Source: a virus (taxonomy: Duplodnaviria > Heunggongvirae > Uroviricota > Caudoviricetes). Taken from it: a stretch of DNA of 64,000 nucleotides. Position numbers and translations under genes: made by a program. The stretch lies in IMG/VR virus record IMGVR_UViG_3300045988_149737; one strand, written 5' to 3'. The notes beneath the pieces were generated by a model. That model was not told the origin of the DNA, ran no database searches, and saw only the letters and a program-made list of their open reading frames with translations. This document shows positions 3,701-26,900 of this stretch, in pieces. How positions within the stretch are numbered: position 1 is the stretch's first letter; the number at the start of each line of letters is the position of its first letter.

Positions 3701-3763
3701 GTAAGCCTTGTTTAAACACATAAGATAACAACTTGTTTAAACACATCAAAAAAGGAAAAACAC

Positions 3764-13696: not shown

Positions 13697-13885
13697 ATGA
13701 ACTGGTTTTCAAATAACTTTGGAAAAATTTGGCTGGCAATTCTGGCCCTCATGGCCGCCGGTTGGGTATCGAACATTGTAAAACTCGTTTGCTCTGGTGA
13801 TCTCCAGTTTCAGGCTGGTATGACCTTGGCTCGTGTTGTTGGGATTTTTGTTTTTCCGGTCGGTTCGGTACTTGGTTATTTCTGA
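13697..13885 (+). CDS. small membrane protein (two predicted TM helices)
   Basis: 62 aa, hydrophobic stretches WLAILALMAAGWV and VVGIFVFPVGSVLGYF. Confidence 0.4.
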   Translation: MNWFSNNFGKIWLAILALMAAGWVSNIVKLVCSGDLQFQAGMTLARVVGIFVFPVGSVLGYF

Positions 13886-13940
13886 CGGTTGTTAGTGCAT
13901 ATGCATTGACCGTCTTTTCGTAAGCAATTCATGTAACTAG

Positions 13941-13955
13941 AAAACAACTTGTTTT
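13941..13955. promoter_or_regulatory. operator-like palindrome AAAACAA-c-TTGTTTT (family 1 site)
   Basis: Perfect inverted repeat 24 nt upstream of the TerB-like gene start; same motif precedes about 12 genes. Confidence 0.5.
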
Positions 13956-13978
13956 AACAAATAACAAAAGGAAAGCAC

Positions 13979-14404
13979 ATGTTAGGTTTATTCAAAAAGA
14001 AAACTCGTAAAGCTGTTATCGAGGTCAAAAAAATGGAGAACCGAGATGCGGTTGAAGCCACCGTGTGGGGCGCGTACATGATCTCCTATGCCGATGGCAC
14101 ATGCGACGCAAAGGAAATTTCCATTCTTGAGAAAACAATTGCAGCTCTGCCTGCGTTTTCTCCGTTTGCTGGTGAGATTGCCCAAATGAGCGCCAATATC
14201 CGTGCTCAATACGAAGCCTCACCGCGCCGCGCTAATGCCCAGGCTTTACGTGAGCTGGCTGATGTGGCCGGGACTAATGATGCAGTAGATGTACTGTGTC
14301 TGTGCCTTGATATTGCCGACCAAGACGGTATTGGCGAACAAGAAGAGCTGGCCCTGAAAAAGATCGCACAGGCGCTTCAGTTGTCACTGGATGCTTATCT
14401 CTAA
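13979..14404 (+). CDS. TerB-like domain protein
   Basis: 141 aa; paired Asp-rich helices (ADGTCDAKEISILEK and DIADQDGIGEQEELALKKIA) resemble the TerB fold. Confidence 0.55.
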   Translation: MLGLFKKKTRKAVIEVKKMENRDAVEATVWGAYMISYADGTCDAKEISILEKTIAALPAFSPFAGEIAQMSANIRAQYEASPRRANAQALRELADVAGTNDAVDVLCLCLDIADQDGIGEQEELALKKIAQALQLSLDAYL

Positions 14405-14562
14405 TGCTTGAGAGATTCCGGCTTGTGACCGTCATTGCTCTTCTGGTGATGGCGGTGTTGGTGGATTTTACGGGAAAGATGATGTCTGTCATTTCTGATG
14501 GCGTCCTCATTGGTCTGGCGATCTACTTCGCTTATCCGCTAGTCCGTAAAGCAACGTGTTAA
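14404..14562 (+). CDS. small hydrophobic protein (52 aa, two predicted TM segments)
   Basis: ATG overlaps TerB-like stop (taATG); translated by hand as MLERFRLVTVIALLVMAVLVDF...LIGLAIYFAYPLVRKATC; below the ORF-track length cut-off. Confidence 0.4.
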   Translation: MLERFRLVTVIALLVMAVLVDFTGKMMSVISDGVLIGLAIYFAYPLVRKATC

Positions 14563-14565
14563 TGA

Positions 14566-14592
14566 CAAGGGCCAAATGGCCCTTGTGTTTCG
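14566..14592 (+). terminator. rho-independent terminator
   Basis: caagggcc-aaat-ggcccttg followed by tgtttcgtt. Confidence 0.5.
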
Positions 14593-14701
14593 TTGACCGA
14601 AATAGAGAGTTTGCACCTTTACGTTTAGCTTGCTCCCCTTTTATGCCACATCACAATAAAGCCAATAAGAAAACAACTTGTTTAAGCATTAGGAAAAACA
14701 C

Positions 14702-23181: not shown

Positions 23182-23571
23182 ATGGGCTTCCCTTCTCCTG
23201 CGGCGGATTATGCTGAGAGCCGTATTTCTCTTGATCAGCAGATAATTAGACATCCTTCAGCGACCTACTTCATGAGGGCAGCTGATAGTCATCATCGTGA
23301 GGGAATATTACAGGGTGCATTGCTGGTGGTCGATTCCTCACTTACCCCGGTTGATGGTTCTCTGCTTGTATGCGCTCTGGATGGGGAATATCGCGTAAAA
23401 AGATACCGGAAGTATCCACGTCAGCATCTGGAGGATTTAAGAACCGGTAAGAAGGAAGCATTGCCAAAGGATGACGATGGATGCACGGGCAGCAATGCCG
23501 TGTTTGGTGTGATCACTCACATTATCAACGACGCAAGAAGTGGCGAGTTTGATGATTGTCCCGTGATGTAG
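23182..23571 (+). CDS. UmuD'-like peptidase S24 protein (HumD-like, lacks N-terminal arm)
   Basis: 129 aa; begins MGFPSPAADY, i.e. at the position of the UmuD Cys-Gly self-cleavage site; Ser (AADSH) and Lys (VKR) at the catalytic dyad positions; SOS box upstream; no umuC-like gene follows. Confidence 0.75.
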   Translation: MGFPSPAADYAESRISLDQQIIRHPSATYFMRAADSHHREGILQGALLVVDSSLTPVDGSLLVCALDGEYRVKRYRKYPRQHLEDLRTGKKEALPKDDDGCTGSNAVFGVITHIINDARSGEFDDCPVM

Positions 23572-23608: not shown

Positions 23609-24709
23609 TCACACTGCGCGGAATGCGATTTCGCCAGGTATTACTTCACCTTGCCAATACATTTGGGCAGCAACGCGATCTGCGAGGTCACGATAAATAG
23701 CCGTAAATTCGCTATCTGGACGACTAATAACGGTTGGTGTTCCGTTATCCAGATCTTCACGAAGTGAGATATGAAGTGGCATTTGGCCTAACAACAGCGT
23801 GTTGTATTTCTCGGCCAGTTTCTGTGCGCCACCAGTGCCAAAAATTGGCTCGTGATGACCGCAGTTACTGCAAATATGCACACTCATGTTTTCGACGATA
23901 CCCAGTACCGGCACTTCGACTTTTTCGAACATCACAATGCCTTTCTTCGCATCGATCAGCGCGATGTCTTGCGGCGTAGTTACCACAACCGCACCAGTTA
24001 CAGGAATGTTCTGCGCCAGCGTCAACTGAATATCACCAGTGCCCGGCGGCATATCGAGAACGAGATAGTCCAGATCAGGCCACAGTGTTTCTTGCAACAT
24101 TTGCATCAACGCCTTGCTCGCCATAGGGCCACGCCACACCATCGCGTTGTCGTCAGTGACCAGATAACCAATTGAATTGGTTGCCAGGCCATGAGACATA
24201 ATAGGTGCCATGTGAGTACCGTCTGGTGAGGTTGGACGTTGGTTTTCCGCGCCCAGCATGGTTGGAATTGATGGCCCGTAGATATCGGCATCAAGAATGC
24301 CAACTTTCGCACCTTCAGCGGCTAACGCCAGCGCAAGGTTTACCGCCGTGGAAGATTTACCTACCCCACCCTTGCCTGAGCTGACGGCGATAATGTTCTT
24401 AACGCCATTAATGCCTGGTTGGTTTTTAACGCGCTTCAGCGTGGCAATGTTGTGAGACAGCTTCCAGTCGATAGCCTTTGCACCAGTGATACGGAGCAGA
24501 TCACCACTACATTGCTCTTTCAGGTCTTCAAAAGGCTTATTCCACACGAAAGGCATGATTAGTTCGACATGCAGTGTGTCATCCATCAACGCAACATGGT
24601 GTAACGCTTTAAGCGTAGTCAGGTTGTGTTTCAGGGTTGGGTGCTGAAAATTAGCCAGCGTACCGGCTACCATTGCTCTCAGGGCATCCGGCGATTTGGA
24701 CTCGCTCAT
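23609..24709 (-). CDS. apbC: iron-sulfur cluster carrier ATPase ApbC/Mrp
   Basis: 366 aa; P-loop SSGKGGVGKSS, CxxC (CSNCGH); collinear with my recollection of enterobacterial Mrp; divergent from metG as in E. coli; RBS aggag. Confidence 0.9.
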   Translation of the reverse strand: MSESKSPDALRAMVAGTLANFQHPTLKHNLTTLKALHHVALMDDTLHVELIMPFVWNKPFEDLKEQCSGDLLRITGAKAIDWKLSHNIATLKRVKNQPGINGVKNIIAVSSGKGGVGKSSTAVNLALALAAEGAKVGILDADIYGPSIPTMLGAENQRPTSPDGTHMAPIMSHGLATNSIGYLVTDDNAMVWRGPMASKALMQMLQETLWPDLDYLVLDMPPGTGDIQLTLAQNIPVTGAVVVTTPQDIALIDAKKGIVMFEKVEVPVLGIVENMSVHICSNCGHHEPIFGTGGAQKLAEKYNTLLLGQMPLHISLREDLDNGTPTVISRPDSEFTAIYRDLADRVAAQMYWQGEVIPGEIAFRAV

Positions 24710-24866
24710 CCCGTCTCCTTTATTTTAATTTGCGCAATTGTCGCCTTGTAGTGTACTCCAGCTACGACATTTAATCATTTATGAGAAATGCTGTTATCAC
24801 ATGGCAGACATAAGGCCATTTTGTTACTATCAAGCCCCTTTTCACTACAAAGAAGTAATGCCTACT

Positions 24867-26900
24867 ATGACCCAAGTCGCGAAGAAAATTCTGGTGACGT
24901 GCGCGCTGCCGTACGCTAACGGCTCAATCCACCTCGGCCATATGCTGGAGCACATCCAGGCTGATGTCTGGGTTCGTTACCAGCGAATGCGCGGCCACGA
25001 GGTTAATTTCATCTGTGCCGACGATGCCCACGGTACGCCGATCATGCTGAAAGCACAGCAGCTTGGTATCACACCGGAGCAGATGATTGGCGAAATGAGT
25101 CAGGAACACCAGACTGATTTCGCAGGCTTTAACATCAGCTATGACAACTATCACTCGACGCACAGCGAAGAGAACCGTCAGTTGTCTGAGCTTATCTATA
25201 CTCGCCTGAAAGAGAACGGTTTTATTAAAAACCGCACTATCTCTCAGTTGTACGACCCGGAAAAAGGCATGTTCCTGCCGGATCGTTTTGTAAAAGGCAC
25301 CTGCCCGAAATGTAAAGCGCCAGATCAATACGGCGATAACTGTGAAGTCTGCGGCGCAACATATAGCCCGACTGAATTGATCGAGCCGAAATCGGTGGTT
25401 TCTGGCGCTACCCCGGTAATGCGTGATTCCGAACACTTCTTCTTTGATCTGCCTTCTTTCAGCGAAATGCTGCAGGCATGGACCCGCAGCGGCGCGTTGC
25501 AGGAGCAGGTGGCGAACAAAATGCAGGAATGGTTTGAATCCGGCCTGCAACAGTGGGATATCTCCCGCGATGCGCCTTACTTCGGTTTTGAAATTCCGAA
25601 CGCGCCGGGCAAATATTTCTACGTCTGGCTGGACGCGCCGATTGGCTACATGGGTTCCTTCAAGAATCTGTGCGACAAGCGCGGCGATACCACCAGCTTC
25701 GATGAATACTGGAAGAAAGACTCCACCGCCGAGCTGTACCACTTCATCGGTAAAGATATTGTTTACTTCCACAGCCTGTTCTGGCCTGCCATGCTGGAAG
25801 GCAGCAACTTCCGCAAGCCGACCAACCTGTTTGTTCATGGCTATGTGACGGTGAACGGCGCGAAGATGTCCAAGTCTCGCGGCACGTTCATTAAAGCCAG
25901 CACCTGGCTGAATCATTTTGACGCTGATAGCTTGCGCTACTACTACACCGCGAAACTCTCTTCGCGCATCGATGATATCGACCTGAACCTGGAAGATTTC
26001 GTTCAGCGCGTGAATGCCGATATCGTCAACAAAGTGGTTAACCTGGCCTCCCGTAATGCAGGCTTTATCAACAAGCGTTTTGACGGCGTGCTGGCAAGCG
26101 AACTGGCTGACCCTGAACTGTACAAAACCTTTACCGATGCCGCTGAAGTGATTGGCGAAGCATGGGAAAGCCGCGAATTTGGTAAAGCTATCCGTGAAAT
26201 CATGGCATTGGCTGACCTGGCTAACCGCTATGTCGATGAACAGGCTCCGTGGGTGGTGGCGAAGCAGGAAGGTCGCGATGCCGATCTGCAAGCGATTTGC
26301 TCTATGGGCATTAACCTGTTCCGCGTGCTGATGACGTACCTGAAACCGGTACTGCCGAAACTGACTGAACGTGCGGAAGCGTTCCTGAATACGGAACTGA
26401 CCTGGGATGGTATCCAGCAACCGCTGCTGGCACATAAAGTGAATCCGTTCAAAGCACTGTATAACCGCATCGACATGAAGCAGGTTGAAGCACTGGTGGA
26501 AGCATCCAAAGAAGAAGTGAAAGCCACCGCCGCGCCAGTTACTGGCCCGCTGGCTGATGATCCGATTCAGGAAACCATCACCTTTGACGACTTCGCCAAA
26601 GTTGACCTGCGTGTGGCACTGATTGAAAACGCGGAGTTTGTTGAAGGCTCTGACAAACTGCTGCGTCTGACACTGGATCTCGGTGGTGAAAAGCGTAATG
26701 TCTTCTCCGGCATCCGTTCTGCTTATCCAGACCCACAGGCACTGATTGGTCGTCACACCATTATGGTGGCTAACCTGGCTCCGCGTAAAATGCGCTTCGG
26801 TATCTCCGAAGGCATGGTGATGGCTGCTGGCCCTGGCGGAAAAGACATCTTCCTGTTAAGCCCGGATGCCGGTGCTAAACCAGGCCACCAAGTTAAGTAA
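24867..26900 (+). CDS. metG: methionyl-tRNA synthetase
   Basis: 677 aa from ATG at 24867 ([30 protein letters not shown]); matches E. coli MetG as I recall it; ORF track start at 24738 is an upstream in-frame extension. Confidence 0.95.

Follow-up and report, generated by a model that had tools for sequence, protein, structure and literature searches.

A described counterpart of the gene pair considered here lies in the ban operon of phage P1. In the P1 record tciA codes for 141 amino acids (aa) and tciB for 54 aa, the two overlap by one base, and a 35-aa tciC comes next. All three genes were non-essential in a screen by clustered regularly interspaced short palindromic repeats interference (CRISPRi), and about half of the P1 subgroup-1 elements have lost the operon. 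TerB, whose family TciA belongs to, is amphitropic and has been reported to interact with TerC, an integral membrane protein; TerB-like proteins are also part of the anti-phage systems Dionysus, Bunzi and Shango, and a membrane-surveillance role has been proposed for them. We have analysed a stretch of 64,000 nucleotides (hereafter the window) of a caudoviricete virus (IMG/VR record IMGVR_UViG_3300045988_149737), in which a gene for a TerB-family protein is followed by one for a small hydrophobic peptide. Judged by its sequence, this is a P1-type tciA-tciB pair, widespread and already annotated, and not new, so that the window adds nothing beyond the existing annotation. An earlier examination made from the letters of the window without database searches (the sequence-only reading) had missed the identity with this long-annotated pair.

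The order is the same as in P1, a 141-aa TerB-family protein and then a DUF3927 peptide of 52–54 aa, and in both cases the cassette is accessory in a phage-plasmid. By tblastn, TciA of the window is 85% identical to that of P1 over residues 1–123, and TciB 37%. Phages P7 (terB/upf69.4) and D6 (orf8/orf7) have counterparts as well. Between P1 and P7 themselves, TciB is ca. 80% identical and TciA only ca. 35%. There are also clear differences. The third peptide, tciC, is not present in the window, where a terminator stands directly 3′ of tciB; it is confined to the P1/P7/D6 group and is therefore not family-defining. In P1, P7 and D6 the cassette has tRNA genes at its flanks, and no tRNA gene was found in the window. 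Finally, the regulatory signals differ, P1 having a C1 operator at Pban and the window an AAACA-N3-TGTTT palindrome in front of tciA.

The unit is compact and lies on the + strand. It starts with a 15-bp palindrome (13941–13955, AAAACAACTTGTTTT, core AAACA-N3-TGTTT), a putative operator placed just 5′ of the unit as the sequence-only reading had delimited it, followed by the Shine–Dalgarno-like AAGGAAA (13968–13974, read directly from the sequence), 4 nt before the ATG of tciA (13979–14404). The ATG of tciB (14404–14562, 52 aa) and the TAA stop of tciA have one base in common (tctcTAATGctt, a TAATG overlap). While tciA has a good Shine–Dalgarno sequence, tciB has none of note, which together with the overlap argues for translational coupling to tciA. 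A terminator scan and folding identified an intrinsic terminator at 14565–14594 (ACAAGGGCC-AAAT-GGCCCTTGT, then GTTTCGTT), with a 9-bp stem of which 6 are G-C pairs and a 4-nt loop (14565–14586), followed by the T-rich tail GTTTCGTT; the region 14556–14605 folds with −22 kcal/mol. An equivalent hairpin follows tciB in most of the other phage contexts. The description of this locus as a self-contained unit (operator, TerB-like gene, overlapping start of a small hydrophobic protein, terminator), proposed from the letters alone, is thus borne out part by part. The small open reading frame (ORF) was described there as missing from the ORF track, but RefSeq and GenBank relatives do annotate it, as DUF3927 or TciB-like.

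The assignment of tciA is firm at the family level. The protein scores 29.3 bits against Pfam TerB (PF05099; cut-off 24.4), with residues 33–136 on profile positions 9–109 of 118, and matches phrog_632, “tellurite resistance”, over its full length (E 2.8e-62). A PDB sequence search returned nothing significant, and the NCBIfam search gave no significant family, with a single sub-threshold match. The N-terminal 20 residues are basic (net charge +5) and the remainder, a helical bundle, is acidic (−10). AlphaFold2 (AF2), with 71 sequences, models TciA as an all-alpha TerB-fold bundle like the solved TerB-like structures, with six helices, a mean predicted local distance difference test (pLDDT) of 89 and a predicted template modelling score of 0.82, low confidence being limited to the first 20 residues. 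The residues D39, G40, E46, G117 and E122 are invariant in 8 homologues of 35–83% identity, and the paired acidic DG...E motifs are intact; the metal-binding site that they would form is a proposed one. A cysteine triad is also present, with one member in the first DG motif (DGTC) and two in the helix ahead of the second (LCLC). Only within the close P1/SSU5/N4-like subfamily is it conserved, C42 and C109 without exception and C107 almost so, and the triad is not found in the TerB proteins of P7, D6 and the jumbo phages. It may serve as an additional site for metal binding or redox reactions.

For tciB the match to Pfam DUF3927 (47.4 bits; cut-off 25) agrees with that to phrog_1470, “TciB-like” (E 7.8e-21). 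The family is large, with 547 clusters at 90% identity and, in a representative library of 1.84 billion proteins, 177 at 50%. In 31 diverse homologues R6, L14, D21, S28, D32, G33, L35 and P45 are invariant, and D21, position 25 (K here, mostly K/R in the homologues), S28 and D32 lie together on the helical wheel, inside an arc of 60 degrees. The sequence-only reading had described a two-helix peptide and had called for structure prediction of both proteins; TciA came out as the TerB-fold bundle described above, but the TciB model did not support the hairpin. From a 31-sequence alignment AF2 gives a single continuous helix (residues 2–51, pLDDT 90), and the two hydrophobic runs (7–20 and 34–47) are only 14 residues each. 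The basic residues at both ends would nevertheless be compatible with a hairpin of N-in/C-in orientation that turns near T23-K25. A possible origin of TciB as a mini-TerC or as a homologue of the DjlA anchor was discarded (hhalign probability 0.1–0.2%). Residues 26–35, with the motif MSV(L/I)(A/S)DG(V/A)L, resemble the TerB signature (A/F)ADGxL; both MAFFT and hhalign align the two, the match being short and not significant. Distant DUF3927 proteins of 83–97 aa, represented by the metagenome contig L097 (523–774), have a C-terminal coiled-coil-like extension, and at least one of them has no TerB neighbour.

Evidence that the two genes belong together comes from their linkage. We compared 90 loci with a TciA relative, made up of the window, 8 annotated phages and 81 loci from IMG/VR or phage Cyrano. 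In 89 of them a TciB-like ORF lies directly 3′ of the TerB gene on the same strand, and in 86 of these 89 the start of tciB overlaps the stop of tciA, by 1 nt in 48 and by 4 nt in 38. An overlapping start, noticed as taATG in the window, where the shared base was confirmed, is thus present at most loci. Pairwise ratios of non-synonymous to synonymous substitution rates (dN/dS) were ca. 0.06–0.10 for tciA and ca. 0.26–0.30 for tciB, so that both genes are under purifying selection. Considering the family matches, the adjacency, the overlap of start and stop and the dN/dS values, tciB is a real, selected gene. Even in a distant pair (P0318) the DUF3927 gene still adjoins TerB. It might be argued that the two are mere neighbours, with TciB functionally unlinked to TciA, given that the partners recombine freely and that a distant DUF3927 gene can stand without TerB. 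However, an adjacency this consistent across unrelated phages, with a conserved overlap and selection acting on both genes, makes this highly improbable.

The partners within the pair are reshuffled, though. TciA pairs that are only 30–50% identical can carry TciB that is 83% identical, and the reverse situation is also found (see below). The sequence comparison indicates that tciA and tciB have been exchanged independently by recombination across the 89 loci; therefore any interface between the two proteins must rest on the few invariant residues. Apparent natural fusions did not hold up. The 196-aa TerB+DUF3927 protein P0094 results from one extra base inserted where the genes meet (TGATG) in a single Logan contig, and P0254, P0306, P0328 and P0381 are frameshifts or chimeric gene calls.

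The region is ca. 96–97% identical to the ca. 108-kb Escherichia phages PhiR41_1, Cyrano and CMS-2020a, and a copy of tciA and tciB that is 100% identical is found on a 111-kb E. coli plasmid. In Cyrano the orthologues are annotated as “P1 TciA-like” and “P1 TciB-like”, and RefSeq describes them as “tellurite resistance TerB family protein” and “DUF3927 family protein”. For the pSLy3-like group, a survey of phage-plasmids lists a “DUF3927 family” gene beside one for “tellurite/colicin resistance”. On account of this survey, of the ca. 108–111-kb non-mobilizable replicons and of the close TciA matches in ca. 110-kb Klebsiella phage-plasmids, the element, an E. coli phage-plasmid, probably belongs to the SSU5/pSLy3 group.

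Beyond this group the cassette is common. Relatives were found in 90 phage records and in at least 559 IMG/VR stretches, at the DNA level in 555 of 5,426 complete E. coli genomes (ca. 10%), and by tblastn in 788 plasmids of PLSDB, 770 of them non-mobilizable and of phage-plasmid size and 11 conjugative. The pair occurs in P1, P7 and D6, in lambdoid prophages of E. coli and Klebsiella, in one prophage early region next to CI/Cro-like genes, and also in strictly lytic phages, namely N4-like Salmonella phages and Erwinia jumbo phages. The comparison of these sequences supports the view that tciAB behaves as a mobile cassette across unrelated phages, and the pair is an accessory, “moron”-like module of many Enterobacterales and Pseudomonas phages. 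In the Pseudomonas phage Nican01 an unannotated TciB/DUF3927 homologue (...RLRAILILILLFGVVLIDSVSRIISMCADGFLAVLIFVLIWPLIKKSSAAK) lies at ca. 1930–2117 of the sequence examined, directly after the annotated terB. The only TerB locus lacking TciB is that of the Vibrio phage vB_VpaP-MS02 (378–1926), where a TerC-family protein is encoded immediately 5′ of TerB.

The name “Tci” implies a genuine lysogenic-conversion determinant, giving resistance to tellurite and/or to pore-forming colicins together with phage inhibition. Both name and annotation were given by homology to TerB, and the ter operon is indeed linked to these three properties. But a lone phage terB has been judged unlikely to suffice for tellurite resistance, and tblastn detected no TerC in the window (the search was not aimed at TerD or TerE). 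TciA is, besides, distant from the TerB of ter operons, as the mere 11 conjugative plasmids among the 788 illustrate, and strictly lytic phages carry the cassette, behind lytic-cycle signals. We regard a resistance determinant of this kind as very unlikely.

The genomic contexts bear on when the pair may be used. In the lambdoid prophages it is always located between the gene of the Q antiterminator and the holin/endolysin genes, immediately 5′ of the lysis cassette. This brings to mind an alternative in which TciB is a small membrane-damaging peptide, similar to a holin, a pinholin or a type I toxin, and TciA its sensor or regulator, the two forming a module for lysis timing or for abortive infection (Abi) and exclusion that would depolarise the membrane once triggered. 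The conserved face of TciB, with the invariant D21, S28 and D32 and the K/R-dominated position 25, would be like that of pore-lining helices, and in Dionysus, a validated defence system, a TerB-like protein likewise works alongside a membrane protein that forms pores. On the other hand, the pair is not beside lysis genes in P1, in the N4-like or in the jumbo phages, nor in the window, where the adjoining genes are unrelated hypothetical ones. Class II holins exceed TciB in both length and hydrophobicity, TciB matched no holin family in Pfam or PHROG, and PADLOC gave no match either. The CRISPRi knock-down in P1 was moreover without phenotype. A toxin with its regulator is therefore an unlikely explanation.

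In the window itself the signal that ties the pair to other genes is the palindrome. AAACA-N3-TGTTT occurs in 8 exact copies where 0.17 would be expected, and 28 strand-matches with up to 2 mismatches were found against 3.0 expected; the 13-nt sites are at 3726, 13942, 14671, 26985, 27036, 27948, 29144, 29522, 30007, 31660, 32145, 41263 and 41288. The operator proposed from the letters alone is in this way one of a series. All copies are intergenic and 5–40 nt 5′ of + strand start codons. The genes behind them include that of the ribonucleotide reductase small subunit (nrdB-like), tciA, the next gene after the unit (14702), a run of small early genes with no assigned function, and the operon of the small and large terminase subunits. 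The GGAAA..CACATG arrangement of tciA recurs after other copies. Several are ca. 10 nt 3′ of a GATAAT −10-like hexamer, a position that would be just past the transcription start. The units so marked, a scattered regulon, are often bounded by terminators. An RNA hairpin was rejected because its stem, of 5 bp and almost entirely of A-U pairs around a loop of 3 nt, would be too weak; more plausibly, the palindrome is where a dimeric protein binds the DNA. The palindrome has been kept 5′ of tciA in three diverged SSU5-like upstream contexts, and it is not present in the lambdoid or P1 contexts, which use their own signals. Since the palindrome is common to the operons of the ribonucleotide reductase small subunit and of the terminase, tciAB of the window is probably wired into the element's own lytic regulon. 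Phage P1, by analogy only, scatters C1 operators across its genome in a similar manner.

Taking these data together, we favour a reading, to which we give roughly even chances, in which an amphitropic TciA has TciB as its partner in the membrane and the two are made during lytic growth to guard the membrane or its cation state. TciB, delivered together with TciA through translational coupling, would insert in the inner membrane and serve TciA as an anchor or as a small oligomeric, polar-faced helix, the role that TerC has for TerB in ter operons or the N-terminal helix for the TerB domain of DjlA. The logic of a membrane partner comes from the amphitropic nature of TerB and its reported interaction with TerC, from the charge contrast between the basic N-terminus of TciA and its acidic remainder, from DjlA and from the Vibrio phage MS02, the sole phage locus devoid of TciB, which has TerC beside TerB. 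The complex would be made in lytic development, from the palindrome regulon here, from the ban operon in P1 and from the Q-dependent late transcript in the lambdoid prophages; the presence of the pair in strictly lytic N4-like and jumbo phages, the site between Q and holin, the C1-controlled Pban and the shared palindrome all point to use in this phase. Once formed, it may adjust or guard the inner membrane or its divalent-cation state, and maybe exclude other phages or colicins. We would expect no tellurite resistance from tciAB, in view of the negative TerC search in the window, the distance of TciA from the ter TerB and the lytic phages that carry the cassette.

Several observations weigh against a membrane partnership of TciA and TciB. 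TciA proteins that are at least 95% identical carry TciB peptides down to 31% identity, and one distant DUF3927 protein with a coiled-coil-like tail has no TerB neighbour at all. The contact between the two proteins is one that we infer, and TciB may adopt either the one helix of AF2 or a hairpin of its two 14-residue hydrophobic runs. Regarding expression, a terminator/promoter scan of the + strand 5′ of tciA gave no sigma-70 consensus promoter, and the −10 candidates picked manually differ among relatives. The palindrome, a putative operator, may serve repression or activation. Lastly, the dispensability of the genes in P1 and the loss of the operon in about half of the subgroup-1 elements mean that tciAB is conditionally useful at most.

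The sequence-only reading had suggested that the pair is a stress or Abi-type module directed at the membrane, or else inhibits such a module. This is plausible and fits the literature on TerB, although against it stand the non-essential tciABC of P1 and the fact that neither TciA nor TciB matched any of the PADLOC-DB 2.0 models, including those of Bunzi and Shango, at E ≤ 0.1 (Dionysus, described in 2025, is not among these models). Another alternative is anti-defence. A TerB look-alike held at the membrane by TciB could jam host immunity based on TerB, be it Dionysus, Bunzi, Shango or the Phi phenotype of ter. Phages often copy defence components, several defence systems contain TerB domains, and jumbo phages are targets of Dionysus; in the deposited records of Erwinia and Salmonella jumbo phages the cassette stands close to the beginning, and it would be expressed with lytic genes. 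Nevertheless, the lack of similarity to the Bunzi and Shango models and the abundance of the cassette in temperate elements, whose hosts often have no such systems, make anti-defence quite unlikely.

A bolder version of the membrane reading is that tciAB is a minimal TerB device for membrane surveillance, in which TciB oligomerises into a membrane element with the polar D21/S28/D32 face and a metal-binding TerB gates or reads it, serving in lytic growth to exclude competitors (superinfecting phages or colicins) or to blind TerB-based host immunity such as Dionysus. We consider this speculative and rather unlikely. If true, neither a lone TerB domain nor DUF3927 would have had a function defined before.

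Some other features were noticed during the analysis. Just 5′ of the unit is a small hydrophobic ORF (13697–13885, + strand, 62 aa, phrog_6006, function unassigned), which ends ahead of a weak hairpin (13891–13910) and precedes tciA also in other SSU5-like contigs (e.g., P0034). An Rfam scan of the whole window gave no match. In loci not belonging to the SSU5-like group, tRNA genes frequently border tciAB (L002, L003, L004, L005, L006, L009 and 16 of 50 further loci), the tRNAs being Asn, Thr(tgt), Arg(tct), Met/Ile(cat) and Gly(tcc). Genes for HslV-family peptidases are situated ca. 1–1.5 kb from the TerB gene in an Erwinia jumbo phage (L005, 1–396) and in Nican01 (L006, 2820–3338). Elsewhere in the window a full-length methionyl-tRNA synthetase MetG with a tRNA_bind domain (24861–26900, +) is divergent from an Mrp/ApbC-type P-loop ATPase (23609–24709, −), with a UmuD-like S24 peptidase nearby (23182–23571, +). 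Cyrano, PhiR41_1 and CMS-2020a have kept this metG/mrp pair. In the E. coli chromosome metG and mrp are likewise divergent.

Apart from P1, three described systems invite comparison. The TerB of terZABCDE(F) shares with TciA the Pfam domain, the fold and the acidic DG...E motifs, and its partner TerC is also a membrane protein. In sequence, however, TciA is too distant from this TerB for tblastn to find the typical conjugative ter plasmids, TciB is unrelated to TerC (a null result by hhalign), and the ter cluster has a TerC, whereas tblastn found no TerC-like sequence in the window, TerD and TerE not having been targeted. In DjlA of E. coli there is a Pfam TerB domain at 62–170 (E 2.1e-8); with hhalign, its second TerB motif gives a weak alignment to the TciA family. 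An N-terminal transmembrane helix holds DjlA at the inner membrane. Anchor and TerB domain are here in one polypeptide, followed by a J domain, while in tciAB the anchor candidate has a gene of its own and a J domain is lacking. Dionysus, made up of a transmembrane protein (DinA), the TerB-like DinB and a pore-forming protein with four transmembrane segments (DinC), resembles tciAB in that the gene for a TerB-like protein accompanies genes for membrane proteins; it differs in being host-encoded and in having three genes, with different partners, instead of two. The phage cassette is common (ca. 10% of complete E. coli genomes, 788 PLSDB plasmids, phages from P1 to jumbo phages), and yet only its dispensability in P1 has been shown. 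The phage version, with two genes in 0.6 kb, offers a convenient minimal model for TerB at the membrane.

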